Source: Lingula anatina
Lineage: Eukaryota > Animalia > Brachiopoda
DNA: 64,000 nt
Assembly: GCA_051362555.1 (NCBI GenBank)
Contig: CM120640.1
Span: forward strand, 55,096,788-55,160,787
Direction: 5' to 3'
Position 1 is the first letter of the stretch; each line of letters opens with the position of its first letter. Shown here piece after piece: positions 14,809-38,996 of this stretch. A program made the position numbers and the translations under genes. The notes beneath the pieces were generated by a model, which searched no databases, was not told the DNA's origin, and saw only the letters and a list, made by a program, of their open reading frames with translations.

Positions 14809-14949
14809 TAAAAGATATATAAAAATAAACAGGGACTAACTTTGAATGTTGTCATTAAAGCAATAATAACTCTTCCTTTGAGATTCAAAATTCTGCAAGA
14901 AATACATTGTAAACAAAGCATGGAAATATATTCTATTGCATTTTACCAC

Positions 14950-16405: not shown

Positions 16406-16479
<74 letters not shown>

Positions 16480-19079: not shown

Positions 19080-19148
19080 ATTATTATTTAAAGCAATCTA
19101 CAGATTTTCTTCATTTTCCTTAGGAAACCCCATGCGAGTCTGAGCATA

Positions 19149-19226
19149 ATGCCTACAGATGGGAGACGGATAGACCGAATTGAGTGTATACAAGTAGAAA
19201 AGAGAAGCTACCCACAAAAACATCAC
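19149..19226 (+). CDS. PX-SH3-SH2 adaptor exon 1 (PX start)
   Basis: MPTDGRRIDRIECIQVEKRSYPQKHH, compare Tks5 VEKRRNPSKHY. Acceptor 19122-19123, donor gtaagt at 19227. Tiny uORF (MRV*) at 19132-19143. Confidence 0.88.
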
Positions 19227-20955
19227 GTAAGTTGACTTTTTTGATTTGCAGATTTCTTTGAAATGTATTGCTAATTTATTTTGTTGAAATACTTCAACAT
19301 AGGCTTGATAGAGTATTGGAAATGGCTTTATTATAGATTAAAAGTTCTCCAGATATTTAGAATTCAGTGTCTGTTATGCACTGTTAAATGTACCCTTTTA
19401 AGGACACGGGTCCTGTTGGTCATAGGTGGGATGGTCTGTATGGTCTGTGTTGGAGAAGTCGTGCTGTCATTTCATACTCCCTTATCAACTCGTTTTATGA
19501 CCATATCACATAAGGCTGTCACATAAACCACAGGAGTCAAACTTGATGATACTGACTTCTAGTGGTGTTCTTATAAGTTTATTGGCCTAAATTCATCCAG
19601 TGTTCAATTGATATATCATAATTTTTGAAAATGAAAAAAACTGTTTGTTTTATTTGTTCAATTTAGTTGAAACTTAATTTTTATTAATAAGTAAGGATTG
19701 CATATTGTGGTAATAAGCAAATTTCTTATACATGCATGTGCCCCAGCATCACCAGGAAGTATCATTTACTCTGTGATAATTTGTTTATATCTACAGGCAC
19801 TGTAGTTGGTTCAGTGCTCTTACAGAAATAAAAGGGTGAAGTGATGACTATGACGCACTTTGGCGTTTCTTGTGACATATGGCCCACCTATTCAGTTGTC
19901 AACATGTTTTATTGAAAAAAAAATTTAAATAAATAAGCAAAGCAAACCTCAGCATGTACTTACAAACAGAGGCTGGGTCCTTTGTGACAAATGATTTATG
20001 TCATGTTGATTTACACATACGTAAATCTTTCCATTTCAATCTTCCTTATTTTCAACTCACAACACAGAAAATATGTAGATCTACCATACAATATTTTCTG
20101 TTTGATTTTTCTTAAAGTATGCCTATCCATGTTTATATTCACAGTGGAATTTCAGATCCATGTTGTTTAGAAATCTGAATATAAACCAGCATCATAGGTA
20201 TCAAAGTTTATTAATTATAGAACAAATTATATATTCAATTCATTGGGTGCATACATATTGTAGACAATCTTAAAGTAATGATTTAAAAGAAGACACATCT
20301 TCTGGACTCCAGTCTCAGATTGGAACATCTGATGTTGAACTTGATAATTTTTGCACATATCTCCCTGAAGGTGGGCCCAGCTCAGGTCATGCTCCTGCAT
20401 ACCAGGTAGTGTGTCACAATGGCAGTGTATTTACCTGTATCACTGTCCTACCACTACCAGTCTGAAATGAATTCAAAAGAGCAAAAAAATAGATTAATGA
20501 AAGAGGTGGATACGTTGTGTAAGTATGAACTAGGTACCTTTAATTTCTTTTTCCAAAACAGGGAATGAGTAGGCCTGTAGAAAAAAACATCTAGTTCTGC
20601 GTCACTTCTGGTGACAGCGACACAATAGGTGTATACTTTAAAACAGCCATAACTGATCTAAATTTAGCTGCTCTACTATTACATCAACAGTTATTACACG
20701 AATATCAGATAAGTTTGCCAACTGATGTCCGTGAATAGAAAACAGTTATGCTATAAATAGCAAAGGGTTAGAAAAAGTCAAAAATGAATAAGAGTCACAC
20801 AATTGTCATTTGATGATAATCTGAAATGGATATTCAGAGTAGTCAGAGTTAATTGTATTATGGCAACACTCCTTCAATAATATGAAGTTAACATCCTTGT
20901 CAGACTTTTCATACCTGTCTTTTACAAAACAGGAATTAACATACTATTGACTGTG

Positions 20956-20957
<2 letters not shown>

Positions 20958-21026
<69 letters not shown>

Positions 21027-21031
21027 TTTTT
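20958..21031. repeat. (TA)n microsatellite plus T23 (LINE poly-A tail on the minus strand)
   Basis: Seen directly. Confidence 0.9.
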
Positions 21032-21125
21032 ATTGTCAATAATATCAGAAATATCAATCATCATACAGCATTTCGTTAACATACATAAAATATATACAGT
21101 GGGAAATAAGCACAATGTGAGGAGG

Positions 21126-23579
21126 TCACTGAAACACGTTACCCAACAAATTCCATCGTTCAGTATATTCTACATATTTTCCATTACTTATATATATGTA
21201 TTTTTCCATTTCGAAATAGTTTTTTAGTTTATTTTGTAGACCTTGAAAATCTAATCTTTTTTCATTCATTCTTTTTCCATATATATAATACTTCGTTACC
21301 AGTATGAGTATATTAATGGCTGCACATTTTATATCGTTTTTCAAAAACAATATATCTGCTAAAGAAAAATTAATATTCAAGAGTGCTTTCTCATTTATCA
21401 AGTTTTTTAAATCTTCCCATAACGGTTGAACCAAATCACAATAAAAGAACAAATGTTCAATGCTTTCATTTTCCTTTTCACAGAAAGAACACAATGAGCT
21501 ATCTTTAACCTTAATTCTTTTAAGAAATTCATTTGTTGCAATAATTCTATGTACTATTCTATATTGAAACCATCTTAAAGTCGTATCTTTCGTAAAGTAG
21601 AATATATTTTTATTTATCATAGTCCAGTCTAAGTTTTCATCAATATTTATTTTCATCTCCCATTTAGCCTCAGTTGCCGGTTTACAATACGCATTACTAA
21701 TCAATATGTCATATATTGACCGCGATCCCTTAGATTCTTTACAGATTATTTCTATAAATTTAGGTCTGTAGGGTAGCGCCAATTTGACGTTTTCTTCCCT
21801 TAGCTGTGGCCACCGTTGTGTAATTGCAGTCTTAACTCCGAGAAATAATGTAAACGGGCATTTAATGTCATACTGGGAACTAAATGATTCGAAAGAATGC
21901 GGTTTTCCACTATTTTCAAACAGGTCATTTACTATATTTACACCCCTGTCATTCCAAGACTTAAAATAAATATCATTATTATCTACCCTCACCTCTGAAC
22001 TATTCCATATAGGCTTTTTCAAAATATCTTTCAGATTATCTGAACTTGAGATATCTCTTTTAAACTCCGCGAGATAAAGAACGATTTCTTTCCAAAAATA
22101 ATTGGTCATGTTTTCCGCGCACCTAACCAAGTATAAGTCTCCCCGATCAATAAGTCGATTTATATTAATATTTTGTGTATCTATCATAAGTCTAACCCAA
22201 TCTGTGTCATTTTTTGTCATAAGTTTCCTTATCCAAGTTAATTTTAAGCTTTTTATAAACGTTTCTATGTCAATCATTCGACAGCCTCCACATTCTATTG
22301 GTTGAATAAGCACCTTCCTAGCTATCCTATCCCTTTTATTTTTCCAAACAAATTTAAAAAGCGCGTTTTCCAATCTCTTTATCGTTTCATCTTTTGGTTT
22401 AGGTAAGGAAATAAATAAGTGAGTAAATTTGGATAAAAGTAAAGTTTTCGTTACTGTAATTTTTCCCAAAGGGGTTAAATTTCTCCTATTCCAACACGTT
22501 ATTTCCTTTTCAACTTCCAATAATCTATCCGAGTAATTTAAGTCTTCAATATTTTCCAAATTTGCATTAAGTGTTATGCCTAAGGCCACAAAATTGCTAT
22601 TTGTCCACTGCAAATTATATTCGGGGCAAAGAACCTCGTCTGAACCGCGTTTAAGTCCGACCCAAATTGCTTTTGTTTTTTCTATGTTAGGTTTTAAGCC
22701 TGAAAATTTGAAATATTGTTCTAATAGATCGAGGGTGCTTTTCAAGCTATTTTCCGTGCCATCAAGGTATATCACCGTGTCGTCTGCGTACTGAGACAAG
22801 AGATATTCTTTTTCTCTGATACGAATTCCTTTAATGTTTCTATTATTTCTTAACAAAATGGCCATAATTTCTGCACATAGATTAAATAAATATGGTGAGA
22901 CGGGATCTCCTTGCCTGCATCCGCGCCCTATCTTAAAGAAGGTAGAAAAAATGCCGTTCTGAATAACGCAAAGGTTAACATTTTGATTCATTGTTTTTAC
23001 CCATCGTATGAGATCATGGCCAAAATTGAAATACTTTAGAACTTGATAAATAAACCTCCAAGAAATCGAATCGAATGCTTTTTCAAAATCAATGAGAAGA
23101 ATCATTCCAGGTATATTATAATTTTTACAGGCCTCAATTATGTCGTAAGTTATTCTTGTATTCTCCCCGATAAATCTACCTGACAAAAATCCTTTTTGGT
23201 TCTCATGCAATATTTCTGGGAGGATCGGTTTTATTCTATTTGCTATACAACTGGATATGATCTTATAGGTTACATTTAGTAGCGTGATTGGTCTCCAGTT
23301 TTTTAGATAATCTCGTGGTTTGTTTGGTTTAGGAAGTATATTTACAATTCCCTGTCTTTGTGTAATAGAGAATTCGCCCCTGTAAAATCCATAATTAATT
23401 GATCGTACAAAATAAGCTCCTAAATTTGTCCAAAAGAATTTGAAAAACTCAATCGTGAATCCATCTGGACCGGGAGTTTTATCATTTTTCATAGCCCGAA
23501 GGGCAGCACTAGCTATATTATATGTAATCTCTCCTTCCAGTCTTTGTGAAATAGTTTTGTTAATTTTATTGACCTTCAA
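21126..23579 (-). CDS. LINE ORF2 C-terminal part: reverse transcriptase plus zinc-binding domain
   Basis: 817-aa ORF with all RT motifs. The frame stays open upstream to ~23697 (IVTDQAEILSEIQNYYKQLY). Confidence 0.9.
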   Translation of the reverse strand: MKVNKINKTISQRLEGEITYNIASAALRAMKNDKTPGPDGFTIEFFKFFWTNLGAYFVRSINYGFYRGEFSITQRQGIVNILPKPNKPRDYLKNWRPITLLNVTYKIISSCIANRIKPILPEILHENQKGFLSGRFIGENTRITYDIIEACKNYNIPGMILLIDFEKAFDSISWRFIYQVLKYFNFGHDLIRWVKTMNQNVNLCVIQNGIFSTFFKIGRGCRQGDPVSPYLFNLCAEIMAILLRNNRNIKGIRIREKEYLLSQYADDTVIYLDGTENSLKSTLDLLEQYFKFSGLKPNIEKTKAIWVGLKRGSDEVLCPEYNLQWTNSNFVALGITLNANLENIEDLNYSDRLLEVEKEITCWNRRNLTPLGKITVTKTLLLSKFTHLFISLPKPKDETIKRLENALFKFVWKNKRDRIARKVLIQPIECGGCRMIDIETFIKSLKLTWIRKLMTKNDTDWVRLMIDTQNININRLIDRGDLYLVRCAENMTNYFWKEIVLYLAEFKRDISSSDNLKDILKKPIWNSSEVRVDNNDIYFKSWNDRGVNIVNDLFENSGKPHSFESFSSQYDIKCPFTLFLGVKTAITQRWPQLREENVKLALPYRPKFIEIICKESKGSRSIYDILISNAYCKPATEAKWEMKINIDENLDWTMINKNIFYFTKDTTLRWFQYRIVHRIIATNEFLKRIKVKDSSLCSFCEKENESIEHLFFYCDLVQPLWEDLKNLINEKALLNINFSLADILFLKNDIKCAAINILILVTKYYIYGKRMNEKRLDFQGLQNKLKNYFEMEKYIYISNGKYVEYTERWNLLGNVFQ

Positions 23580-23694
23580 GTCTTCTAAAGTAACTTCAAG
23601 ATCTACCTTTTCGAGAATGTCATCTTTAGATGCATATAGCTGTTTATAGTAATTTTGAATTTCAGAAAGAATCTCTGCCTGGTCTGTTACTATT

Positions 23695-24810
23695 TTATTT
23701 TTCGTTATTCCGCAACTTTGTTACTGTTTTATTAATATAGTTCCTTTTTTCCAAGGCACAAAAGTATTTACTAGGTTTTTCGCCATATTCGACCCACCTA
23801 ACGCGGGAGCGTACTATATTTCCCTTTAGTTTTTCTTTTCTAAGTTCCTCTAAGTCTCTTTTATATTGCGCTAATTCATCAATATTTTCATTATTTTGAT
23901 TTTCCAGTTTACTAATTTTTTCTATTAAATCATCCTCAGCCTTCTCCCTCTCTCTTTTCTTTGCCGATGCATAGGATATAGAATGTCCCCTTATATTTAA
24001 AAGAAGTTGCTCAAAAAAACGCTGGTCGTCAATAATAAACGATAGTATCTCATCGTCAATATTTGGCACAGCTTCTCTTAAAAAGGGAGTGGCCGCATAT
24101 TGCATTTTTGTTTCATTAATTACTTTACATACTAGATCTCTATACTCTTTATCTTTAAGAAGTAGGTTATTATGTTTCCAAAAGCCTTTACCGCGTTTAA
24201 AAGAAGTGAATTTCACAGTCATTTCTACTATAGCATGGTCTGTTCTATATCCTGGCTTGATTGCAATGTTTTCAATCATATTGAGTAATTCAGATGAAAT
24301 TAAAAAGAAGTCGAGTCTAGCTTTTTTAACTGGATTGCTAGCCCTCCATGTATACCTTTTCGCTTTACCATGTTTTAATCTCCAGGGATCATTTAAGTTG
24401 TGTTTAGCTTTTATCCCAAGTACCTTCTCTCTGGCTCTAGGATTATTCACAAACCTATAATTATAACAATCTAATTCTGGCTCCTGTACAAGGTTCCAAT
24501 CACCTGTAATCAACAAAAAATCATAATCTGAGTTAATTATACACTGATCAATATACTCATAAAATTCTGGCGTGTCCTTATTTGGACCATATATATTAAT
24601 TAGCAGCAAATTAAATTTCTCAAATAGTAAAATTTCTAAAATAAGAATATTTCCAATAGCATCGCATTTACTTGTTAACACTTTATACTCAAAAGTATTA
24701 CTAAACAATATCGCCACGCCTCGAGCATTTGATCTGCCTGGGCTTAAATAAATCTCAAAACCCCAACAACTTCTTATTGTATTTTTCTGGCTTTCCGTGA
24801 AATGCGTATC
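23695..24810 (-). pseudogene. LINE ORF2 N-terminal part: APE endonuclease (5'-truncated, separated from RT by a 1-nt frameshift)
   Basis: Frame reads DTHFTESQKNTIRSCWG...RGVAILF to LRNNEK*. Removing one base from the T5 run at 23698-23702 fuses it to the RT frame. Confidence 0.85.
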
Positions 24811-24899
24811 TGTGTAATATTTTGATATGATCCTTGCATGTTTGATCTATAAAAATATCATCATTCAAGTCAACCTCAAACTTTTTATTTTCATATCAG

Positions 24900-24980
24900 G
24901 TTTATGTTTTACAAGTTATATGGTCAGATGGAGAGAAGTATCCAATCTACAGAAAATACAGCCAGTTCTTCGACTTGAGG
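24900..24980 (+). CDS. PX-SH3-SH2 adaptor exon 2 (PX)
   Basis: VYVLQVIWSDGEKYPIYRKYSQFFDLR, compare Tks5 VYIINVTWSD..IYRRYSKFFDLQ. Phase 0-0. Confidence 0.92.
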
Positions 24981-25401
24981 GTAAGCTTTATTAGGAATTA
25001 AATTTGATGGATATTATTTAGTTTTTTGCATCCATCAGCCCCTGTGAAATTTGGTTGTGTCTATGTTTTCAACAAATTATACAACAGGTTTTTATTTTCA
25101 TTTGTCCAAAGCAAATAAACTTTAACAATCACTGAATACTTTTTCATGAGTTATATATTTGAATTCGCCTGTATTTTTTTTTTTTTTTTGGGGGGGGGGG
25201 CATGGCAAAACCTATGTCATTGTGGTAATCCTCTATCATCACTCATGGTGGTGGATGACCACAGAAATAATGCACTGTCAGAACTGTCAGACCAGTAAAC
25301 CAGCAACCTGTACTGATGTGTTCTGCAGGTAGATTACAGCGAAATACTGTTGAAAATAATCGTCTCAACTTACAATATATTTCCAATAAAAAGTAATTTT
25401 A

Positions 25402-25542
25402 GGCTGTGCTCAGATTAAAAATTATTGGTCCAGCAGGATCGATCTATCCAGCAGGAGTTTTCACTACAGCACAGTCAGTGTAATTAGCTAAATTGTCTGG
25501 CATGCCCCTGCTTGACCAATAACTTTTAATCTGAACACAACC
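25402..25542. mobile_element. Small Tourist-like MITE with TTA TSD
   Basis: ggctgtgctcagattaaaaattattggtccagcagg ... cctgcttgaccaataacttttaatctgaacacaacc, with TTA on both sides. Confidence 0.7.
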
Positions 25543-25849
25543 TTAAACACTAGAATACACATTTAATAAATGCAGTACAGTTTTCATTCTTTGTTTTTAA
25601 CTATGCTGCTAGTGCCATACAGTCTTGTTTTCACTATGTAAAATGTTAAGGATCTGTTACTTGTTTAACTCAGAATAACAGCATGGTAACAATTTGTAGC
25701 TGTCGGGTATGCATCTGTTTGAATTTTCTGTCAAATTCATTTGCCATGTATATATATCTCCTTTTGATTTAAGTTGTAGCCCGAAGCTATATACATGAGA
25801 TTAATTTATAATAGATTGATGTTTGCTTTATTCTCACTGTGTTTTTCAG

Positions 25850-25898
25850 GCTCAAATGAAGGAAGAACATGCTGATGCAGACATTCCAGAATTACCGG
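25850..25898 (+). CDS. PX-SH3-SH2 adaptor exon 3 (PX proline loop)
   Basis: AQMKEEHADADIPELP+G, compare IPFLPGK. Phase 0-1. Confidence 0.88.
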
Positions 25899-26104
25899 GT
25901 AAGAGAATAAAATCTGTGAACTTCCCTTGATCAGCATGTGTGATGCTCCTTACCAAGAATTTCCATTTTATTTCAAGATGGACTGAGATAATGTATAAGT
26001 GCATGGGGCATCTTCTTGAAGTACTTTCTCAGTGCAATTACTAAGTTAAAATTACTAATATTTCTTCACATTGCATGTAATTTAAATTTATTGCCTTTTT
26101 CCAG

Positions 26105-26187
26105 GTATATCTCTGTTTTTACGAGGAGGCCTTTTTCATGATCATGTCATAGAGAAGAAAAGAAAGTCAATAGAAGACTTTTGCCAG
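26105..26187 (+). CDS. PX-SH3-SH2 adaptor exon 4 (PX)
   Basis: ISLFLRGGLFHDHVIEKKRKSIEDFCQ. Phase 1-0. Confidence 0.88.
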
Positions 26188-26480
26188 GTTTGTATGTGCT
26201 CTTGTAGAATAATGAATGTCAAAATGGCTACGTACCTTAAGTGTCACTGTGAAAAATTGTGATTAGCTCTGATTTCCCCACACCTACAAGTAATCAGTGA
26301 ATAAAGGTTATTTGATATTTTCAAAGATACAAACAAAGTTGGTAATAATGTGGCATTGCGCTCCTTGATATAAAATGCCTTTCATCCAGTATGTTAATTT
26401 CTTAAATATTGCAACATTTTTGGACCATGCATCCATTGCAGTGAATCTCCCTCTCATAGTTCATGCTCTATTCCATCTAG

Positions 26481-26596
26481 AAAATTCTCCAGCTACCTCA
26501 AAACTTGGTGAAAAGTAGTGAATTTATTTCATTCTTTGAACCATGGAGTACAGATTTGCCTCAGCCAGACACAAAAGTATGCAAGGCATCAGAAAG
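26481..26596 (+). CDS. PX-SH3-SH2 adaptor exon 5 (PX end)
   Basis: KILQLPQNLVKSSEFISFFEPWSTDLPQP, compare ALVRLPPHISQCDEVFRFFE. Phase 0-2. Confidence 0.87.
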
Positions 26597-26645
26597 GTAA
26601 GGATTTGCAATGAAAACATGATGAATGATTGGGTTTTTCACTTCT

Positions 26646-26649
<4 letters not shown>

Positions 26650-26697
<48 letters not shown>
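26650..26697. repeat. (CT)n microsatellite
   Basis: Seen directly. Confidence 0.95.
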
Positions 26698-26700
<3 letters not shown>

Positions 26701-27971
26701 ATTTGACTTAAGTCATTTTAAGGAAAATATTAAATGTGAGCATTGTGAAATTTCATTATTTTCTTACTACATTTGATGTCTGAAGAAATGTAAACATCTG
26801 CACGTCCACGATACTAGGTAACTGCAATGGGACATGGGCATCAAAATTTCAACATGGGGCAGATGTTGTGAGCATGCTTTCCGCTTAGAATATGCATCAT
26901 ATTGTGCTTTATATTAATAAATTTTGGAAAATGTAAACTCATGTAAAAGTTATCAGGGAAGAGTACACTTAACTTCACAGAGTTGGGCAAGCGTGCTGCA
27001 ATCCTGATTTGGTGGTTAAACAGCAATGGTATGAAATGGCTTTTTATGCATTGCATGATGAAAAGTGGGAACTGGATGTAGCTAATTTATTAAGTCTCAT
27101 TTAATAGTCATGTGACCAGGTCATTAAATCATCATTGTAAATTTCCACTATGTACACTAGGTCCCTGGGTCAAATCTGAATGGGGAAATGAAACCACACG
27201 TACCCTAGCTGTGGTTTCATTGGTCGGCATCATTTCCATTTTCAACCATCGTTTCCATTTTCAACTTCAGTACAAAGTATTATCTCCCATGCTCATGAAC
27301 TATACAAATCATCCAATTTTGGGATTTAAATGCCTGAAATACACTCTTCTTTTCATAAAACAACACGGCTTAAAAAATCCAGTCATCTCACCATGTATCA
27401 TGACCCACTCCTGTTTTCTTTACCCATCAAAACTTGTGAATTTTTTGTATTTCTTTGTATTTGTGCAATAAATGATCCCTGAGATGACCAAAAAAACATG
27501 ACAATACTTTTCTGAGAGCTTTCTTTATCATAATGTATAGCTGCAAAATAGGTATGTCTGTGTCCCACATTTAAGCTCTGTTTGAGTCTTATTTTTGGCT
27601 ACGAATTAAAAAGTTTAAATACACAGCAATATTTGGAAACATAAAATTGTTTGCTATAACAAGACAAATCCATCCCCTTTCATATGAAAGCACCCCCATT
27701 GTAATCCAACACATAGGAATCCTTTGTGACAGACTTTCAAAGATGATAACCCATTGTTGTTACTCAGTATCATGGACGTGCATATATATATATATATAAT
27801 GACATATGTGAAAATGTTTTTTGGCAAAGGGTAACAATATCCTTAATACAAGTAGCACATTCATTATAATTAACTTATATGCGTGTATATAGTACTACCA
27901 AAAAAAAGAAAAATGAAAAATGAACACTTCAGATCTTAATGTGTAATTTTTAGTTCCTATTTTCTCCATAG

Positions 27972-28225
27972 AACATCTCAGTACTCACCATCCAAAAGAA
28001 ATTCTGATCATGAAGACCACAAGGAGCGTGCCTCTCTCCCCCCTGTTTCAACTGATTTTCACAGCCATGTAAATGACCGTCCAGTCACAGTTATGTCCCC
28101 ATCATCACATGACCAAGGGGACACTCAACTGTACAAGGCAGTGATGGTGTATAACAAGAGGAAAGCAGGGGAAGTAAACCTCACAGATGGAGATGTGGTC
28201 ACAGTCTTAGAAAAATGTCCTTCAG
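27972..28225 (+). CDS. PX-SH3-SH2 adaptor exon 6 (linker plus SH3-1 N-half)
   Basis: ...QLYKAVMVYNKRKAGEVNLTDGDVVTVLEKCPS. Phase 2-1. Confidence 0.9.
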
Positions 28226-28875
28226 GTGTGTATAAAGTGGATCTGTTAAACAAGCTTATGCAGGTAGCATCACTTGTCATATCATGTCACAGTTTGAAAC
28301 TTTCCCTTCTTCAGTTTTGACTCAAAGATCAATTTCAAATAACTTTTTTTTGTGATCTGTTGTTAAAATATTTTATGAGCTTATGTCTTACACCATGGGG
28401 AAAATATTTGAGGAAAGCATTGCATTTTCAAGATTACAGTATTCTGTATATATATTTGAAAATGTCCCAAAGGCATATACTGCATTTCTATGTTTAAATA
28501 TCCTGAAATAATCTCCCAGTTTATCTTTCCCAATTCAGACCTTTAAAAAATGATAATTCCCTTAAAATAAAAGCAGCTGATATTGATGTAATTACCTTCT
28601 GAAATGGCAAGGAGATGGCTGACCTCATTATTCATTTAGAATCAAGTTATTTGATTAGAAATTGTACAAAACATCAAATCCAAGTGCAGGGACAGGTTGA
28701 GCAGTGATTCATGAATGGGGAAAAATGCTTTTTTCTTGAGAAAAATTAGATTGAAGACAAACTTCAATTTCCCAGCACCACTCCAGGGCAAGGAAGAAGA
28801 ACCTCATGGATAGAGTAGGGTGGTTTTCTTCATTTATGTATACGTATGTTTCAAGTTTTTTTGTGTCCATCACAG

Positions 28876-28986
28876 GTTGGTGGTTTGTCCACTTGGAGAG
28901 AAGTGACCAGGAAGGCTGGGCTCCCGGAGCTTTCCTAGAACCACTCCAGGGCAAGGAAGAGGAACCTCAAGCAGAAGACAAACCAA
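28876..28986 (+). CDS. PX-SH3-SH2 adaptor exon 7 (SH3-1 C-half)
   Basis: GWWFVHLERSDQEGWAPGAFLEPL, compare p47phox GWWFC..RGWIPASFLEPL. Phase 1-1. Confidence 0.92.
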
Positions 28987-29183
28987 GTATGTGGCTGTTA
29001 AGATGATGTGCTTGCTTGTAAAATAAAGACAATTTGCTTTCATTTAATTTAAAAGAAGATAGAAATGATCTACTTTTACTATAATTGTAAAGCATTCAAG
29101 TTGAAAGAGGAATATGCATAAATCTTTGTTTGAAAATGTAAGCCATTATATGTAATATATATACCACATACTTTGAATTTTAG

Positions 29184-29301
29184 TTGGGAGATGTGTAACC
29201 CTGTGTGATTATATTGGAGATGGAGAAGATGAAGTGTCTTACAAGAAAGGAGAGATAGTGGAAGTGATAGAAACCAGTATGGATGGATGGTGGAAAGTCA
29301 G
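29184..29301 (+). CDS. PX-SH3-SH2 adaptor exon 8 (SH3-2 N-part)
   Basis: CVTLCDYIGDGEDEVSYKKGEIVEVIETSMDGWWKV. Phase 1-2. Confidence 0.92.
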
Positions 29302-29507
29302 GTAGATTGAAATATAATATCATACATTCATTTGGGAAATTACTAGAATTTTAAAATAAATACTGAATAAATAATGTATAAAAATGATTGTAAAAGGATC
29401 TTCTTGTTGTAATTCAGTCCCAAACCAATGTCTGCTTTTGTATTAAATTCATTTCAAAACCTTGGAGACAACAATATCTTAAAAAGATAAAAAAAAACAT
29501 CCACATG

Positions 29508-29509
<2 letters not shown>

Positions 29510-29558
<49 letters not shown>

Positions 29559-29561
29559 TGC
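29510..29561. repeat. (GT)n(GCGT)n microsatellite
   Basis: Seen directly. Confidence 0.9.
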
Positions 29562-29647
29562 ATGTTCAGATTCAAACTGAATTACATCAAAATATCATAC
29601 TGGCAACACCAGATGACCACTCAACATTGAATTTAGATTTAGAGTTA

Positions 29648-30194
29648 GAGCGCATTCTCAACGAATTAAGCCAGGCTTTACAAAGCCGGTGACCTAAAAA
29701 TGGCGGACGTACATGAAAGAAAAACCGCCTAATCTTTTAATAGTCTCTCCGCCTCTCACACGCCTCCCCACACGTCGTCCCTGCGGGGTACAGTAATTAA
29801 ATCTCGGCTCCGAACATTAATATTTCCGTGAATATCTCTGGTGATATTATCTCCTTAGATAGTCGATTCATTGCTGCTCTACGGGCCAAATTATTCCTTT
29901 TTCGTCTCTGTTTTCAAAGATAATAGAACAGAAGAGCTTTTTTTTTTTCGATCGCCTTCAGCCGCTATGCCTTCTTCACCACGAGTTTAACTGATGAGCA
30001 TGCGCACTTAATATTTCTCAGGTAGCTTCCGCATGGCGAACGGAGCCGAGATTTAATTACTGTACCCCGCAGGGACGACGTGTGGGGAGGCGGAGAGACT
30101 ATTAAAAGATTAGGCGGTTTTTCTTTCATGTACGTCCGCCATTTTTAGGTCACCGGCTTTGTAAAGCCTGGCTTAATTCGTTGAGAATGCGCTC
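29648..30194. mobile_element. Young MITE with ~155-bp near-perfect terminal inverted repeats and TTA TSD (PIF/Harbinger-type)
   Basis: Arms 29648-29812 and 30041-30194 are reverse complements apart from an 11-nt insertion in the left arm. TTA at 29645-29647 and 30195-30197. Confidence 0.9.
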
Positions 30195-31380
30195 TTACAG
30201 TGGTACCCCTAGTGACACCTTGACTCATCTTATTATCCATAGATATGAGTAGGGTCATTTTCTTTATATTCTGTTTTCAATGTTTCTTAAATCTGTCTAT
30301 GTGAGTATCTCTCTGTGCATTCTCTCTAGGAGGCGTGTGTTGCCTTCCTGTCCTCGTACAGGCAGGCAATGTGGGTAAGAACACTGGTGCATGTGTTGTT
30401 TGGGCATGAGGTTTAAGTGTATGGCATTTTGTATTACTAGTACACACATACAACAGAGCATGCCATTCTCTTTAAGAAAATTATGTTAAATCACAGAGAC
30501 CTGTCTTGGTAATTGGGTGGTTCATTAGACTGTTGTCACTGTGTCAGAATAATTCAGTATCATAGGAGAGCATTTATTCTGTGGTGTGTATGATAAGTGA
30601 TAATTATTACAAATAGCCTGATTAATGCTTGTTGTACTTCTTGGAAGCTACTGAGTTCTCACTTTTGTCTGTCACATTCTTGATGAATGAAATAGAAAGT
30701 TTCTCTTTCCCTTGTGCTTTCAAATTTGTCATGTTTACTCACAACACTTTTTAATGTGTAAGAAGACAGTGTGAAGCATTTTTGCTATCACTTTTTGTCA
30801 CCAGAATTTTAAGGGGTTGAGGCTGACATAGGACAGTTAATATAAAAATAGAAGGAAAATTTAGAGCACAAAGAGAAGCAAAACAGAGCATGACTTTCTG
30901 TGTATGCCCTCCCCACTCTCCCCCTGCCCTTAAGTTGAGTATTTTGCAGTCTTTTGACTACCAGTGACAGTAGGAGACTCAAGTAAAAATACATGAGAAG
31001 TCTCAGTTAGCTGTGCCATTAAATTGCACAGTTAATTTTATTTTTGTATAATTTTGTACGTAGTAATTGCATACAAAATCCAAATGCTACTAACATGTTT
31101 ACTAAGTTGTTCATGCAAATTTTGCATGCATTATAAACTTATGGTAAAAACTTGAAAATTTTGTCTTAATTTATAAATATTTTAAATTGTGTGAACCTGA
31201 CAAATTTTTGAAAATAATGTTTCCCTGATTCCTGGGTATGACACAGTTTTGTCCTTAGCGGCTTTTATCCTTGTTCCTTGTATATTGTGGGATATTTATC
31301 ACTCCTTCCAATATCACTTTCATGTGGTGAATAATAATCTATTTATAAGTGCATATCAGTTTCATTATATTAACTTACAA

Positions 31381-31585
31381 CCTCGTCTCACTTGCATTGC
31401 AAACGATCTCCCGCTGAAGACATGAAAATTTCCTTCTCATCACGCTCAGATCGCAAACAATCTTCCACTGACCATCTTTCATGAACAAAGTCTCTAAATC
31501 CCTTGAAGGAATGGGAAAATTGCCTTCTCATCTCACTTGCATCAGGAATGATCTCCTGCTGAAGATATTAAAAATACCTTCTCGC
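31381..31585. repeat. Degenerate ~50-55 bp tandem repeat (3-4 units)
   Basis: Recurring ccttctcatctcacttgcat...gatctcc.gctgaaga units. Confidence 0.55.
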
Positions 31586-33168
31586 TGTCAGGTGTCATGC
31601 ATATGAAGGTCTTGGAAGTGTCCACTTTCATAATTTGGTGGTGAGTTTGCTCAGACTTCATTTTGGGCCTACACCTGTTTTGTACCAAATGAAGTTCACT
31701 AGGTAATTGAATAGCGCAATGAACATAAATAGAAGTGACGGGTATATTTCCCTTCGAGATAATATCTTGATATTTTCATTGTGTCTTCCTCATTTAGGAC
31801 AGCCATCGATAACAGTGAAAGCGTTACAACTGACAAAGAGTCACAACATGTAACTTCTATTTACCGGCTTGAAAACCCACCTTATGCAAACCATATGTAT
31901 ATAAGCTGGTAGGCCCCTAATAGTAATGACATAAAAGACAAATGGCCAATCTTCCTGCAGTTGATGACCAGAATCCACATTTAAACCATCTATATCATAA
32001 GTAGCCACTCTCAGGGAGAACCATTGTTCCTATCTCCCATTGAGTGTTATTGACAATGATATCCTGATCATTTTATTGTCTTGAATCAACTGACACATTA
32101 CCTTTATGTTTGAGCTGGACAACGCAGTCAAATAAGGTGACAAACTTTTCAAAATTATCAAGAGGCCCATTTACAAGTTCGATGAAATTTTCAAAGTGAA
32201 AAAAATTACGTCAGCAGTAAATGGTCTTCTAGCGAAACTTTTAAGACCGAGGAAATTTTCAAGTTTTTACCGTAGGATTAACTTACAATTCTAATTATTT
32301 TAATTTTTCTTAGCTTTAGGTTAAAAGTAGATAATATGTCATTGTTTTTTATTTGTTTTAATGGCATTTACATTTTTGCTTGAGCCATTCCATTTAAACT
32401 TAAATAAGATGAGACATTTATATAGATAAAGGCTTGCTTTGTTAACTCAAAAATGTTTTGTTTCTTACCAAGGAGAAGAGTAAAAGCTACTTAAAAATAA
32501 TATTGTCTGAAAAATTATTTGTATATCCATACTGTGATTAAGTGCAATTTCTTTCTTTCTACTTGGCAAAGTGTGGTGTCTTGGTATTGATGCATGTGCT
32601 GTTCAATAATTCATTTATGTTATATTCATTTTTTTTTTATGTCAAGCACTCACACACATTATGATAACATTGTTACTGTTGGATAACACTGCATTTCATG
32701 TGCATTTCAGTTATTATCACTTAATACACAGATATATGTACTTATGTGTGTCTGAAATCTATCAAACTCATATCAGTATCATATGATTATTATGGGCAGA
32801 AAGTATTTGCAATCTTATTCTCTGCAAACTTTTTAAAATCAGATTCCTGAATTATTTGGTCTGTGGAATGTATTTTCATGACTAGATGTAGTTCCATTTG
32901 GAGATCTCATATGTACATTTAACTTAAGTAATATTAGGTGTAAAACACCTGAAAACTATTGCTAATAAAATGCACTGACAGCTATAGCATATTTTACGGT
33001 AGAGGAAAAATTGATATGCTCTAAACTGTGAGTGCAATGATAAAGGCTTGCCAGTTGTGTGACCAATATCAGGAGTTTAGTATAAATTGCCCTGGTTCAT
33101 GCTACCTTTTCTCTTCACTTCTGGCATTGTCAGTGTTTTTTTAAGTTTATTTGTCTTCTTCCTCCTAG

Positions 33169-33253
33169 AACTGTTCATGGTGAAGTGGGTGTCACTCCTG
33201 CCATCTATCTCCAAAACTTGGATAAGGAAGAAAAACAAACAGATAAGGAAAAA
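33169..33253 (+). CDS. PX-SH3-SH2 adaptor exon 9 (SH3-2 end)
   Basis: TVHGEVGVTPAIYLQNL completes the SH3 (GxxPxxYL). Phase 2-0. Confidence 0.9.
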
Positions 33254-33626
33254 GTAAGTTGGTCAAACAGTATTAACAAATAAAAAATTTTGCATGCTTG
33301 TACTTATAAAAATATTTGAACATGAACATGAACATGGCAGACTTAACTGCATTTGTATTTCATTTTATTTTTATTTTTCTTGTTATTTTTGATTGTTTAA
33401 TATGCATTTGATTCTAATAAATTAATTTTCTGTATTATTTCATTATTTTTTATTTTTCTCAGTATCTGATAGTAAGTCAAATTAAATATTTCTTTTTGCA
33501 CAGCACACAATATGTTTAAACTGGTTTGTTGTTATAAAGATTATCTTTATATTAGGCTATAAATGACATATCTATGATATTTCATATCATTTATATGTAC
33601 AGCACAATATGGAATTTGCCTTTCAG

Positions 33627-33697
33627 GCTATTTACTCATTGCTGAAAGAAAGTCACCACCAACACTCCATTTATGGTCGTCAGCCACCTCCAAGGCG
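33627..33697 (+). CDS. PX-SH3-SH2 adaptor exon 10 (autoinhibitory-like PPPRR)
   Basis: AIYSLLKESHHQHSIYGRQPPPRR. Phase 0-2. Confidence 0.85.
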
Positions 33698-34188
33698 GTA
33701 AGTTCTACTGAATTATACATCCATATTTCCTGCAAAGTCTGTAGCATACCAGTACCTTATGAATGGTCTGTAACATTATGGTATTTGAAAACCAGTTAAA
33801 ATATAGATTGTAGAACCTGTGACCATTAATATCATGTTACATTTGATATCTGGAAGGTGGAAATGGAAGAGGTGAGTAAGAGTAGTTTTGGGCTTTTAGT
33901 ATTTAGTTATAAACAGTGTGTCTGGTTTTGTAAAAACAATGAGGTGTAGTATATTTTTGAAGTTAACATGAATAATGTATGATCCTGACCAGTCAGTCTG
34001 CCAGCATATTGTAATACAAAAAAAGGAGTCAAATTTTTTGTATTGTCATGGATATATTGTCATGGATACATTTTTGATTACCAAGTGAAAAGTGCATTGT
34101 AAGGTTGTTGTAAAATTCAATTTTTGTTACTAATGAATCAAACAATAAGGTAAATTACTTTAAATTGTTGCACATTTGAATGTTGTAG

Positions 34189-34413
34189 GACATCATCTAA
34201 GTCAATCCTATCTCAGGCCAGTGTTTCAAGTAAAGATAGTGATTTGTATGCCATTCCTGACAAGTCAAAAAAGACAGACATTAGTGTGAGTCAGAATCCA
34301 CCAGGTGACAGCAGCAGTCCAGAAAAGTCAAGCTCACAAGACAGTATGAACAGAGACGCACTTAATTACACCACCATTAATTTTGATGAAAAGAAAAATA
34401 GCAAAGAACAGGG
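34189..34413 (+). CDS. PX-SH3-SH2 adaptor exon 11
   Basis: TSSKSIL...DLYAIPDK...ALNYTTINF. 225 nt open, phase 2-2. Confidence 0.85.
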
Positions 34414-34918
34414 GTAAGGAGGTATTATTTAAATGTATTGCTTAAGTACAGGGAAGAGGACAAAATAAAAGTTAGCTTATTCTGTAATTTTGTGTAAAAT
34501 TCTATCATCATTTCAATGAAAACCCTTCTACATGTAGTTTTAATTTATATGTTGTTAGAATATTACTTGCTATAATTTTACGGTTCCTTTTTTTTTATAT
34601 TGAAACAATCAATAGTATGTCATGCTTTGTAAATTATCATTATCAAAATCAGATTTTATTTTCAATTCAGTCAAAATTCCAAGGTGCTGCCCTTGGTTTT
34701 TCTAATGTAATGTGCTTGGCAGAAAACACAACAGTTTTTCCCATTCACCTTACTGCATATCCAACTTTTTATATCCAACTCTTGCAACAAGGGGAAGGGA
34801 GAGGTCATTTGGTCACTAACATTGCTAAAACAGCACACTGTTGCCCTGTGATATCATAATATAAATAATGGCATATTGAAAATCCAAGATAAAAGATTGT
34901 ACTTTATTTTTTATTTAG

Positions 34919-35048
34919 GAAGTCAAAGCTAGTCATCATAGGAGAGCCAGGGGTAGCATATGCAGAAATTATTCCAAAAGCGTTACCTCCAAAAAAACAT
35001 GCAAAAGACAAAGGGCCAACTGTTAACTATGAAAACCAAGATATCCAG
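34919..35048 (+). CDS. PX-SH3-SH2 adaptor exon 12
   Basis: KSKLVIIGEPGVAYAEIIPKALPPKK..VNYENQDIQ. Phase 2-0. Confidence 0.83.
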
Positions 35049-35277
35049 GTAGAGAAATGTGTGAATTCGGTTTCTGCTCTGTCATTGTAGTTTATATTAA
35101 CATTTAATTCTGTTCTTGTAGAAGGACATGTCTTTAAATGCATTGTATCAACAAGAAGCATGTAATAACAGAAAAAAGTAGACTTTGTAGATGAATGATG
35201 GCTCATTTATCCCTATGAGCAATATACCCCGGTATACTACAGGAACACATAGCAGAAACTGATATTTATTTTCTCAG

Positions 35278-35478
35278 CCAAAAGCCAGGACTCCCTCTCC
35301 AATAGCAGTGACTTCTCCTCAACCTATTTCCCATGGAGCAGTGAAACAACAAAAGACATCAGAACCAAAGGATCCCAAAAAGCAGGTTTCTGACCACACC
35401 TATATGAACGTTGTGAAAGATGCTGGGAAACATAGCTATGAGAATATTGAGGTATCTTCATTGAGACCAGAGGAAGAG
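35278..35478 (+). CDS. PX-SH3-SH2 adaptor exon 13 (alternative in-frame donor at 35451)
   Basis: PKARTPSP...HTYMNV..HSYENIE. Phase 0-0 with either donor. Confidence 0.8.
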
Positions 35479-35784
35479 GTAAAAATACAAATATTGTTGT
35501 AAGATGAATAAGAGCAGATATTTTTCTCAAACTAGTTCAAAGCAGTAATGAAGAGGTGTCAAATCTTAAATTTTCATAACATTTCTTCATTTTCTAGTGT
35601 TGACTTGGTTTAAAAATCAGAATTTCTTCAAACAGTGAATATTTTCTCATGGACTTGAAATAAACTCTTTTTCAATAAAAGTGTTATAAGTTTTTTTCTC
35701 CTTTTTTTTTGATCATTGTAAAGCATTTTTTCTTTGATTTCTACCAATATATGTGTTGTTTAAATAATTTTGCTTTCATTTTAG

Positions 35785-35877
35785 CTAAGAAAGAAACTCT
35801 GCCATGTAAGTATAGACTATACTCCAGAAATGTCACATCAGCAAGGATTAGCAGTGAAAGCTGGAGATACAGTGCAG
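35785..35877 (+). CDS. PX-SH3-SH2 adaptor exon 14 (divergent SH3-3 N-half)
   Basis: LRKKLCHVSIDYTPEMSHQQGLAVKAGDTVQ. Phase 0-0. Confidence 0.8.
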
Positions 35878-36167
35878 GTAACAAATATATCTGTCTCAGA
35901 TTTTTAAATAAGAAATTTAGTTGCTCAGTTTTTAATGAGAAATTAAGTAGCCATTTCTACTGAAATTTATGTAGGAGCAAAGGCTGGCTATAGTGTTATC
36001 TTAATATTAATAATTTATTCAGTAAAACTGCAACCAGTTTGTTGAAGTTTTACAATGTTAATAGAAAAATAAAACTAAATCTTATACATACTTGAGGTAG
36101 TAAAGTTATTTATGGTTTATTGGTAGAATACAAAGATCACAGATCTCTATGTCTCTCTGTATTGCAG

Positions 36168-36279
36168 GTTGAAAGACAGGAATCTTCCTTCAGTTACTGC
36201 CTGTTACAAGACAAGGAAAAGGGATGTATAGTTGCAGAGGGATGGTTGCCCTCTGATATACTTGACTGGAGAGAAGCAG
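36168..36279 (+). CDS. PX-SH3-SH2 adaptor exon 15 (divergent SH3-3 C-half)
   Basis: VERQESSFSYCLL...AEGWLPSDIL. Phase 0-1. Confidence 0.82.
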
Positions 36280-36651
36280 GTAATAATATATGAGAACATC
36301 TGACAAATCTAGGCTGAAAGAGAAATGGCTTTAGTATTTTACTAACAGAGGCTTCAGTGTTGTGCTATTGGTGTCAGGTTGACATATGTTCACAATATTC
36401 GATAAGAATTTGTTGTAATGTGCTCTTTCCTGTATCATGACCTGCTGTGACCTGCTATCATGGTGATAGGAGTTCAGATGAATGTTCAGATAAGTTTATG
36501 AAATCCTTTTTTGTTGCTTTTTTAGTTTATAAAGAGTTATCAGACATTTCCTTTCATGTTTTTATTGCTCTTCATTTAAGTTGCAACTATTTATTGCCTG
36601 TTGATGTAAGTTATTAATTCTCCCACATGTATATATTTTTTGCCAAAATAG

Positions 36652-36777
36652 GTGCTTCTCCTTTACCCACTACCCCAGTATCCCCCATTGTTCCTTCCAT
36701 CCGAGAGCCTGTAGGGTCACCACCAGTAAGGAAAGGGTTACTGGCTAGGGGAACAGGCAGCTCAGATGACGAGAGAG
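36652..36777 (+). CDS. PX-SH3-SH2 adaptor exon 16 (Pro-rich)
   Basis: ASPLPTTPVSPIVPSIREPVGSPPVRK. Phase 1-1. Confidence 0.8.
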
Positions 36778-37123
36778 GTTGGTTTGTCATGGTCAACAGT
36801 CTTGTGGCATTGTTGAAAAGAATATAATTGGTCAGATAAACATGTGGCTTTTCGCTGTTAAATGAACACAGGGCATGATCAGCTAACAATTAGTAATATT
36901 CCTAGGCAGAATTTTTACATGTTATGAGATAAGAGCAATTTTTAAATTCAAGCATAAGAGATATTGCCTATTATTTGTATACAATTAGTTAAAATATAAG
37001 TGTATTTATCATCATGTTGTATTATAGGTTAACTTAAAGATTATTTTGTCTCTTGCATTTTGAACCAAATTTTTGAACTGAGAAGATTTCTCATTCATAT
37101 TTTAAGTATCTTTTTGCTTTCAG

Positions 37124-37239
37124 ACCTTATACCCAAACCAGAACTTCTCGAGAAGAGAAGGTCTTCAGCCAACCCCCCTCCCATGCCCCTCCACCCCTCC
37201 CCTAAACTATTGTCTGTGGACCAACCACAAATTGAAAAG
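37124..37239 (+). CDS. PX-SH3-SH2 adaptor exon 17 (Pro-rich)
   Basis: LIPKPELLEKRRSSANPPPMPLHPSPK. Phase 1-0. Confidence 0.82.
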
Positions 37240-37925
37240 GTGAGAAAAGAATTGCAGAAAATTAAAAAATTGTTATACCTTATATTTTTCAGCTCTTACA
37301 GGAGATACGGTAATTTATTTTTCGTGAAGTGCATGTCTTCTCATCTATAATAAGATATTTGGTGGAATATTTTTTGTTGTGTACCTTGTCTTTGTTGTTG
37401 CTTTATTATTAATCTTCTAAAATCTACTACATATGTAATGTTAAGAACTAACACATTCTTGTTGTCTTGCTTTTTAATGTATTTATTTATTTAAAAAGAC
37501 AATGTTCTTATTTGCTGTTGAAGCATTTCTTGTAACTAAATCTCTTTGGTATCTTAAATCTCTTCTGTTTATCTGTACATTGCAGTCTTAAGCATTTTCG
37601 ATTGTATTTGGTTTGAGTGAAATGGCTGTCTCAACAGCTGCAATGCTTGAACTAAGTCATCTACATTTACTAAACATAAACACTAATCTCCTCTGTGAAT
37701 GTGGTTGCTGTAATAACATTGGTTGGTTGTGTTCAACAGGACCATTTTGGTAACATTAACTGGATTAACTCAAAAAAATTATCCTCACAATATTACTTAT
37801 CTTTGTAATTTTTATTAGATAAATAAGGGTACAATTAACGTGATATAAAATTTTTCTATAATTTGGACTTGAATATTTCACAAAGCTTTATATGACATAA
37901 ACTCACAACATTCCTCTACTTCCAG

Positions 37926-38114
37926 TCTGAGCCTGCCTTTACTTACACCTCTCTAGTAGCCCTAGCTGACTATGACAGCAGACATGAAAGTGTCCTGTCT
38001 TTTCATGCAGGCGACTATGCTCTTCTGCTTGGCAAAGATCCTAAAGGCTGGTGGCATGTTAACTTGGGGGGGCTGGATGGATGGGTTCCTGGGGACTATT
38101 GGAGAGAGGCTCCG
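37926..38114 (+). CDS. PX-SH3-SH2 adaptor exon 18 (SH3-4)
   Basis: VALADYDSRHESVLSFHAGDYALLLGKDPKGWWHVNLGGLDGWVPGDY, a complete canonical SH3. Phase 0-0. Confidence 0.9.
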
Positions 38115-38404
38115 GTAATTAGCGAATGGATGGATATCACATTTTGTTTTTCATTTATTAACTTTTATTTAGATATTTATTTTACATGTTTTTCTTTTAT
38201 TCAGCATAGAATTATTTGGTGATGGCTATGATAGTTCTTTTTTTTTTTCTTTTGGAAGTTTGTCGCTTTCTATGTAACTTTTTATGTATCACAAAACAAA
38301 AGCTACTTTGCTAAAACATTTTTTGTTTAGGAACAAAAAAATGTTTGGGCTGATGTAGAGTTTTACTTTTCCCATATCTTAAACATAAACAATTCCATCT
38401 TCAG

Positions 38405-38605
38405 CAAGCAGAAAAGACAACTTCACCAAAGCCATCTCCCAGGTTGGCAAGGAAACATAAACCAAAGTCTCCAGAGTTAAAAACCAAAGCAGGTAAAACA
38501 GCCATGGAATGGGATTATGGAAAAATGAGTCGCCATGAAAGTGAGTCCCTTCTTTTGAGGAATGGCGATGATAGAGACTTTCTAGTCAGAGAGAGTATGA
38601 ACAGG
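38405..38605 (+). CDS. PX-SH3-SH2 adaptor exon 19 (SH2 N-half)
   Basis: EWDYGKMSRHESESLLLRNGDDRDFLVRES (FLVRES signature). Phase 0-0. Confidence 0.92.
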
Positions 38606-38786
38606 GTAAGTTATATCATAAAATAAACATAGATTGCTAACAAAATAATTTTCTTGAAATAATTTTTTTTATGCATGGTCTTCTGAAATTAGTGCACAAG
38701 TCTTTTTTTTTTTTTTTCCACACAGGCACATTAAATACTCAAAAATATTAATAACCACAGTTCACAACTTTCTTCTGGTGTTGCAG

Positions 38787-38996
38787 GTTGGTGACTACAC
38801 TATCTCAGTGCGGTACAGTGAGAGGGTGCGCCACTTTCCAGTAGAGACCACAAGTGATGGAAAATACTACATAGGAAAGCATAACTTCAGTACCCTGACC
38901 AAAATTGTAGACTACTATCAGCATCACCCATTATTTTTTGATGACAAACATGAAGCAATAAGCTTGGGAAAGCCACTAAAAGTAACCAAGTCCTGA
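38787..38996 (+). CDS. PX-SH3-SH2 adaptor exon 20 (SH2 C-half, stop)
   Basis: GDYTISVR..VRHFPVE...YYIGKHNFSTLTKIVDYYQHHPLF...ISLGKPL, an Nck-like SH2 C-terminus. Confidence 0.92.
   Translation, partial: VGDYTISVRYSERVRHFPVETTSDGKYYIGKHNFSTLTKIVDYYQHHPLFFDDKHEAISLGKPLKVTKS

Follow-up and report, generated by a model that had tools for sequence, protein, structure and literature searches.

An expressed gene of 20 coding exons

We analyzed a 64,000-nucleotide stretch of DNA from the brachiopod Lingula anatina (assembly GCA_051362555.1, contig CM120640.1, positions 55,096,788 to 55,160,787; hereafter the window) and found that it carries a gene for a PX-, SH3- and SH2-containing protein of the p47phox/Tks superfamily, whose relatives with an SH2 domain appear to form an ancient animal family. 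Joining 20 exons between window coordinates 19149 and 38996 (+) gave 2649 nt, encoding 882 amino acids (aa) and a stop codon in a single frame without internal stops. All 19 introns are of the GT..AG type and have compatible phases. This agrees with a first-pass annotation of the window, made from the sequence alone, which had described 20 phase-compatible GT-AG exons and a frame of ~880 aa; the C-terminus that it quoted is found in the 882-aa product.

RNA evidence came from short reads of seven runs bearing the same species label as the window, examined in two sets (set 1: X1, X4, X7 and X8; set 2: X4, X6, X3 and X9). The gene is real and expressed, with read support for 19/19 introns: 18 as read joints, and that between exons 1 and 2 by loose ends before exon 2 that hold exon-1 sequence (33, 88, 73 and 50 reads in the four runs of set 1). 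Set 1 supplied 15 of the joints (of 35 in all), namely those of exons 2-3 through 13-14, 15-16, 18-19 and 19-20, with the exon 6-7 joint present in only two of its four runs, and set 2 supplied 14-15, 16-17 and 17-18. First mates in the stranded runs mapped almost entirely to the minus strand, which is what transcripts of the plus strand should give. Reads of X7-X9 mismatched the window at many letters, and these runs may represent a different population or a closely related animal. Searching with exon 20 retrieved the RefSeq entry for this gene, Lingula anatina LOC106178930, which carries the automatic name "SH3PXD2A" and falls in a 12-member isoform cluster; isoform X5 (P0009) equals the 20-exon model plus 35 additional N-terminal aa. 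RefSeq proteins, which are the sole basis for this observation, also imply four alternative first coding exons spliced to the acceptor of exon 1 (Table 1).

We considered whether two adjacent genes, one encoding PX-SH3-SH3 and the other SH3-SH2, had been wrongly joined. The exon 8-9 joint was scarce in X1 and X4 (7 and 6 reads), and the RNA evidence consists of short reads. This scarcity is accounted for by a cassette exon, 8a, which was included in 92 reads of X4; moreover, every intron is read-supported and full-length homologues from several phyla lie on single assembled contigs of 2.5-3.7 kb. The two-gene explanation is thus effectively refuted and the one-gene claim of the first-pass annotation is borne out, with the single transcript resting on chained short-read joints, RefSeq models and full-length homologues. 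Every joint from exon 9 to exon 20, the span for which that annotation had proposed an RNA-seq check, was seen in short reads. Its exon set was real as far as it went, and it overlooked exon 8a and a micro-exon, 17b; the exact 20-exon form is a minor one in X4.

Inclusion of exon 8a depends on the sample, spanning ~10% to >90% across runs. Reads for inclusion versus skipping, the latter taken from joints or loose ends, numbered 92 vs 6 in X4, 11 vs 12 in X3, 6 vs 13 in X6 and 11 vs 58 in X9, and the exon 8-9 joint that marks skipping had 7, 6, 72 and 45 reads in X1, X4, X7 and X8; its low count in some runs is because the cassette was included. The encoded peptide contains two Cys, and in the structure prediction it loops out of SH3-B with the SH3 strands retained. 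None of the other aligned family rows showed a similar insert. An element resembling a miniature inverted-repeat transposable element lies ~130 nt upstream of exon 8a; its 112-nt terminal inverted repeats are 99% complementary, and RNA reads from related copies pile up on it on both strands. Micro-exon 17b is spliced between exon 15 or 16 on one side and exon 18 or 19 on the other, always in frame, and its forms in X4 (42+27 reads) exceeded the exon 17-18 joint (6 reads). Exons 16 and 18 can also be skipped in frame; for exon 18, which encodes SH3-D, loose ends from exon 17 to exon 19 were seen in X6 (8 reads) and X9 (20 reads). A direct joint of exons 15 and 18 (7 reads, X4 alone) shifts the frame and was taken as noise or a decay product.

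Table 1. Exons of the Lingula gene and other features of the window, in window coordinates.
Feature	Coordinates	Strand	Content and evidence
Exon 1	19124..19226	+	Acceptor 19124, ATG of the first-pass annotation 19149; start of PX; loose-end reads to exon 2
Exons 2-5	24900-24980, 25850-25898, 26105-26187, 26481-26596	+	PX domain; Pfam, reads
Exons 6-7	27972-28225, 28876-28986	+	Linker and SH3-A; GWW 221-223; W222 aligned with p47phox W193
Exons 8-9	29184-29301, 33169-33253	+	SH3-B, completing the bis-SH3 module
Cassette exon 8a	30330-30374	+	45 nt, in frame; 15-aa basic insert in SH3-B distal loop
Exon 10	33627..33697	+	AIR-like core: Y341, then PPPRRTSSK 345-353
Exons 11-13	34189-34413, 34919-35048, 35278-35478	+	Disordered linker; Y409/Y438 pair; YxN sites Y461, Y509, Y521
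Exons 14-15	35785-35877, 36168-36279	+	Degenerate SH3-C; predicted structure and profiles
Exons 16-17	36652-36777, 37124-37239	+	Proline-rich linker with alternative splicing
Micro-exon 17b	37293-37309	+	17 nt; substitutes for exon 17; RNA reads
Exon 18	37926..38114	+	Entire SH3-D on one phase-0 exon; skippable
Exons 19-20	38405-38605, 38787-38996	+	SH2: R789, FLVRES 805-810, H829-F830-P831; stop
Alternative first coding exons	~11567, 11947, 13777, 18562 (within 11567-18642)	+	RefSeq proteins
MITE-like element	29644-30198		Terminal inverted repeats
LINE-type retroelement	21126-24846	-	In intron 1; RVT_1 and zf-RVT (Pfam)
FAM60A/SINHCAF gene	2712-7752	+	Upstream neighbour; Pfam FAM60A
Nuclear hormone receptor exons	62243-63233	+	Ligand-binding domain

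Domain architecture and origin of the SH2-bearing branch

The architecture of the protein is PX-SH3-SH3, a segment resembling the autoinhibitory region (AIR) of p47phox, a Tyr-rich linker, a degenerate SH3 (SH3-C), a fourth SH3 (SH3-D) and a C-terminal SH2. On the full protein, Pfam detected PX (1.9e-14), SH3 in three stretches and SH2 (1.4e-19). It gave no match for SH3-C, either per exon or on the full protein, and when run exon by exon it also fails to detect PX. An AlphaFold model built on a 15-row alignment gave exons 14-15 an SH3-like five-strand pattern (predicted local distance difference test, pLDDT, 78-94 for the block), within a whole model that has disordered linkers, a mean pLDDT of 62.9 and a predicted template modelling score of 0.41. 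The modelled bis-SH3 fits that of p47phox (7yxw_A) with a root-mean-square deviation of 2.1 over 130 columns, although the predictor may know 7yxw from training, and human NCF1 was the top PDB match. With its N-terminal PX, tandem SH3 and PPRR-S/T core, the Lingula protein belongs to the p47phox/Tks superfamily, as the first-pass annotation had proposed. The AIR that it reported is present only in part: the core motif PPPRRTSSK, preceded by a Tyr, matches the alignment in the supplement of PMC2121648, and Pfam NCF1_PBR_AIR and p47_phox_C, both of which match the p47phox control P0138, found no match in the Lingula protein. The SH2 is intact, as claimed, with its FLVRES motif and the signature residues R789 (αA2), R808 (βB5) and H829 (βD4), the last two positions being invariant in 14/14 family SH2 rows; the βD6 position is an atypical Pro (P831).

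The SH2-bearing proteins have a wide distribution. A phmmer search of 1.84 billion representatives gave 2399 matches, and PX and SH2 occurred together, by local domain profiles, in 16 of the best 150 that were listed. A search with an SH2 profile gave 42 matches, 21 of them with precomputed PX and SH2. Taxon names were taken from a look-up of 20 phmmer matches and from the SH2-profile search, with many matches carrying no name. The named relatives include a calcareous sponge and cnidarians (Sycon ciliatum, Nematostella, Hydra, Rhopilema, Montipora, Porites and Stylophora) and priapulid, annelid and nemertean worms (Priapulus, Capitella, Lineus and Tubulanus), with partial models in Owenia, Ridgeia and Clytia. 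Among the matches listed there was no named member from deuterostomes, molluscs, arthropods, nematodes or choanoflagellates, which suggests loss of the branch in these groups; humans are not known to have a protein with both PX and SH2. In Nematostella, the "p47phox" of the PMC2121648 supplement is a canonical gene without SH2, distinct from the SH2-bearing P0022. Since Nematostella holds both paralogs, the duplication is older than the cnidarian/bilaterian split.

To place these proteins, we built a quick tree of PX plus bis-SH3 from 83 rows, reduced to 51 by removing rows that were close to redundant and P0099, which has a long branch. Its labels are our own: "p47" was assigned via P0138, "choano" has one named row (Salpingoeca), and "Tks" rests on the clade, the architecture, two named echinoderms and what we take to be a likeness to vertebrate Tks. 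The 14 SH2-bearing rows formed one clade (68/89 under LG+G4, 86/92 under C20), with a eumetazoan core at 99/86. Placement of Lingula within Tks was rejected by the approximately unbiased (AU) test (p-AU 3.7e-7), and so was orthology between deuterostome p47phox and the protostome members (p-AU 0.007); the AU p values are lenient, since the groups were chosen after the first tree had been seen. The groups are likewise separated by the PX loop F/Y-P-x-E-x-G, which is present in 0/16 SH2-bearing rows vs 57/67 others (Tks, p47phox and choanoflagellate rows). These results indicate that the SH2-bearing proteins are a third branch, apart from Tks and p47phox. As its sister neither p47phox (AU p 0.49) nor Tks (AU p 0.09) was rejected, and the C20 tree placed p47phox on its side of an 83/80 split.

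Some other placements are of note. The echinoderm "p47phox-like" proteins P0025, P0191 and P0192 grouped with Tks and not with vertebrate p47phox, P0025 being, by eye, the sea-urchin sequence in the PMC2121648 supplement, and an amphioxus protein with six SH3 domains grouped with p47phox (99/95). Within the p47phox clade, P0073 lacks an SH2 but combines PX-SH3-SH3 with a long C-terminal stretch that is rich in Tyr and holds three YxN sites; it is a possible link between that clade and a docking-type linker. A metagenome protein, P0075 (PX-SH3-SH3-SH3-SH2, 515 aa), lacks the Tyr-rich linker and fell within the family clade in neither tree; it is possibly an independent second PX+SH2 fusion.

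Among the single-SH2 PDB chains and the SH2s sampled, that of Nck is the most similar, in agreement with the first-pass annotation. In a PDB search with the family SH2 profile (60 of 89 rows shown), where ranking by summed score placed multi-SH2 chains above it, Nck1 was the best single-SH2 chain (88 bits) and the only row shown to match across profile positions 2-98. In a search-biased sample without Grb2, the median profile score was 85.9 bits for 29 Nck-type SH2s vs 49.4 bits for 27 others. A fold search with the whole model gave mostly generic SH3-SH2 matches and was uninformative on this point. In a quick SH2 tree the family SH2s grouped apart and were not nested in Nck (99 columns, supports 81-88, 9/81 branches starred, a weak result), and the βD6 position is Pro in 23/28 family SH2s vs Arg/Lys in 20/29 Nck-type SH2s. 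All 15 SH3-D and all seven SH3-C domains tested scored best on Tks SH3 profiles and not on Nck (22/22). Because the distal SH3s are Tks-type, the SH2 is apparently not nested in Nck and βD6 is Pro, the protein is probably not a fusion of halves of Tks and Nck; a lone SH2 was likely added to a Tks-like protein with four SH3s.

The first-pass annotation had read the gene as a Rosetta-stone fusion. A lineage-specific fusion is not borne out: relatives occur in a sponge, cnidarians, Priapulus, annelids and nemerteans, and their distribution points to an ancient family, extending from sponge to protostomes, rather than a brachiopod one-off. Public databases name these proteins automatically as SH3PXD2 or "uncharacterized". 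In a search of the openly available literature we found no description of the PX-SH3-SH2 architecture; the passages and supplements of PMC2121648 (Kawahara and Lambeth 2007) that were covered do not mention "SH2", and that survey used the SH2-less Nematostella paralog.

The tyrosine-rich linker and possible roles of the protein

We compared motif counts in 15 family linkers and 67 linkers of SH2-less relatives against 500 shuffles, in which the rows are kin and Fisher and shuffle counts overstate independence. P0070, a family member ending at the start of the SH2, was counted as SH2-less, which works against the contrast. Family linkers are richer in Tyr (2.68 vs 1.01 per 100 aa). They contain 27 YxN motifs vs 6.3 when shuffled, and 29 motifs resembling immunoreceptor tyrosine-based inhibitory motifs (ITIM) vs 7.3, neither count being reached in any of the 500 shuffles; the ITIM-like motifs showed no enrichment in SH2-less linkers (15 vs 11.9). 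Pairs of Yxx[ILV] spaced 15-45 aa apart were present in 12/15 family linkers vs 1.7 shuffled, the Lingula pair, Y409/Y438, being 29 aa apart. In the family linkers there was no enrichment of PI3K-type YxxM (3 vs 2.0) or Crk-type YxxP (13 vs 13.3). The Nck-type motif Y[DE]x[PV] was strongly enriched in the SH2-less relatives (25 vs 4.4), which fits the binding of Nck by Tks5 in trans, and weakly in the family (7 vs 2.8, reached in 15/500 shuffles). In 11/14 SH2-bearing rows vs 6/39 others, a Tyr is found among the 12 residues that precede the AIR core.

YxN motifs can bind Grb2 and [ILVST]xYxx[ILV] motifs can bind SHP2. We hypothesize, with somewhat more confidence than doubt, that the protein works like Gab or FRS2, as a scaffold with multiple docking sites that serves tyrosine-kinase signalling. 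A Tks-like PX-4xSH3 ancestor would have duplicated early in animals, with one copy gaining a lone Nck-like SH2. Recruitment to a phosphorylated receptor or a Src substrate would fall to this SH2, in place of a PX without the canonical PtdIns3P residues, after which the disordered linker would be phosphorylated by kinases. The YxN sites of the linker could recruit Grb2, and its paired Yxx[ILV] sites could occupy both SH2s of SHP2, as in Gab/FRS2; activation of SHP2 by Gab through two sites is described in PMC2747914. The AIR-like PPPRR segment would mask the bis-SH3, the Tyr immediately preceding this segment could serve as a further switch under tyrosine-kinase control, and splicing of exons 8a, 17/17b and 18 may tune SH3 outputs. 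Every step from motif to partner here is inferred from sequence.

The state of the PX domain bears on this proposal. The four-residue rule for PtdIns3P binding by PX domains is given in PMC6449406. The Lingula PX, which is without the F/Y-P-x-E-x-G loop, carries K45, I71 and K88 at three of the four canonical positions and departs from the rule at three. The Lys of the PPK loop is present in 0/14 family rows vs 16/16 Tks rows, and the α2 Arg in 5/14 vs 16/16; the family PX has lost canonical PtdIns3P-binding residues.

Several points weigh against the docking-scaffold proposal or the branch on which it depends. Rows of the p47phox clade also lack the PPK Lys (0/5 matched), yet p47phox binds lipids (PMC6449406), and the argument from PX degeneration is therefore not decisive. 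The Lingula protein itself retains both GWW motifs and the PxxY Tyr of SH3-B, which is compatible with p22phox binding. Monophyly of the whole family is unstarred and P0075 lies outside the clade. YxN is also enriched, if less strongly, in the SH2-less relatives (31 vs 14.3), and the kinship of the rows tempers all such counts. Motifs of these kinds are promiscuous. Lastly, the βD6 residue usually aids phosphotyrosine binding, and binding by an SH2 with Pro at this position may be weak or unusual.

Roles in NADPH oxidase (NOX) assembly and in podosomes, both raised by the first-pass annotation, are less likely than docking. A NOX organizer with phosphotyrosine input, in which the SH2 would bind an immune receptor, the AIR would be released, the bis-SH3 would grip the p22phox tail and the distal SH3s would bind a p67phox-like activator, is in our view unlikely. 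The PX-bisSH3-AIR order is retained, as are the GWW motifs; NCF1 is the top PDB match and the bis-SH3 fits 7yxw; R349-x-S351-x-K353 fits the PKC consensus from the PMC2121648 supplement; p22phox-like genes occur in Lottia and Nematostella; and p47phox fell on the family's side of the C20 split. Across the family, however, the PxxY Tyr of SH3-B is lost in 11/14 rows (Asn in 9/14) and the GxxP aromatic in 11/14, while 14/16 Tks rows keep PxxY/F. Neither p47_phox_C nor the full AIR was matched by Pfam, Nematostella has a separate canonical SH2-less paralog, and orthology of p47phox to the protostome members was rejected. Direct coupling to NOX assembly, as the first-pass annotation had put it, is weakened by the degenerate family PX and SH3-B and by the Nematostella paralog.

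A podosome or invadosome actin scaffold would do in cis what Tks5 and Nck do in trans, which was the Rosetta-stone reading of that annotation. The vertebrate precedent it invoked holds, as pY557 of Tks5 binds Nck (PMC7663256), and the Nck-like profile of the SH2 and the Y[DE]x[PV] counts fit such a role. We nevertheless regard it as improbable, in that what Nck contributes to Tks5 is SH3s that recruit N-WASP, and there is no Nck-type SH3 among the distal domains tested; the SH2 is apparently not nested in Nck, and the PX lipid site kept by Tks rows is degenerate in the family. The SH2 might instead act mainly in cis, clamping the protein's own phosphotyrosine (e.g., that before the AIR core) and toggling the bis-SH3, as in Crk or Src. 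The co-occurrence of that Tyr with the SH2 speaks for this and the long disordered linker could permit looping back, but the residues downstream of the Tyr vary and it is absent in 3/14 family rows, and we give this explanation little credence as the main function. Such action could coexist with docking. Overall, the first-pass annotation was sound on the single gene, the superfamily and the Nck-like SH2, its fusion framing was not supported and its NOX framing was weakened, and it overlooked the Grb2- and SHP2-type motifs of the linker.

We also considered a bolder scenario, in which the nearest relative of p47phox is the SH2-bearing branch, not Tks, and this branch still organizes NOX. We think it improbable. 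If it were true, early animals would have wired receptor phosphotyrosine straight to superoxide production via one protein, and the same protein would also dock Grb2 and SHP2, placing the oxidase and a redox-sensitive phosphatase target on one scaffold.

Neighbouring features, significance and comparison with known systems

Intron 1 contains a near-complete retroelement of the long interspersed nuclear element (LINE) type, with an 864-aa open frame. An overlapping 383-aa frame precedes it, endonuclease-like by eye and without a Pfam match; the parts are in different frames, and the end of the element is marked by a poly(T)/(TA)n tract at about 21000. The gene upstream is FAM60A/SINHCAF, and toward the other end of the window are receptor exons that, by eye, are presumably of NR2E/tailless-PNR type.

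p47phox, NOXO1 and Tks have been described as PX plus SH3 proteins only. A third branch with an SH2 and a phosphotyrosine docking linker, which appears to date to before the sponge/cnidarian split, would alter the history of the family, and the names SH3PXD2A/B on these genes in databases are probably mislabels. In cnidarians the docking partner of FGFR is an open question (PMC7260276). The SH2-bearing protein is a candidate receptor-kinase docking protein there, and Nematostella and Hydra allow direct tests.

The resemblance to Gab/DOS, FRS2 and IRS is one of working and not of homology: they too have an N-terminal membrane-type domain, a disordered multi-Tyr linker and a pair of sites suited to both SH2s of SHP2. 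The Lingula family has PX instead of PH or PTB (neither was found by Pfam in the Lingula protein), an SH2 of its own and four SH3s. Nck/Dock (SH3-SH3-SH3-SH2) comes nearest in its SH2 when profiles are compared, a likeness that extends to the C-terminal PLF/PIF segment, but the family SH2s group apart from it with weak support, have Pro rather than Arg/Lys at βD6 and accompany SH3s that are not Nck-type. Tks4/Tks5 (SH3PXD2B/A) and the SH2-less "p47phox-like" proteins share the N-terminal PX, the bis-SH3, the PPPRR core and two further Tks-type SH3s. In contrast to these proteins, the Lingula family has a C-terminal SH2, forms a separate clade and has a PX without the F/Y-P-x-E-x-G loop and PPK Lys; its SH3-B is often degenerate, and in its linker YxN and Yxx[ILV] abound in place of Y[DE]x[PV]. 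With p47phox/NCF1 and NOXO1, which are possibly its sister branch, it shares the PX-bisSH3-AIR order, the GWW residues and PKC-type serines. The Lingula protein differs from them in having extra SH3s and an SH2 and in lacking p47_phox_C and the full PBR-AIR, whereas p47phox keeps the ancestral PX loop.

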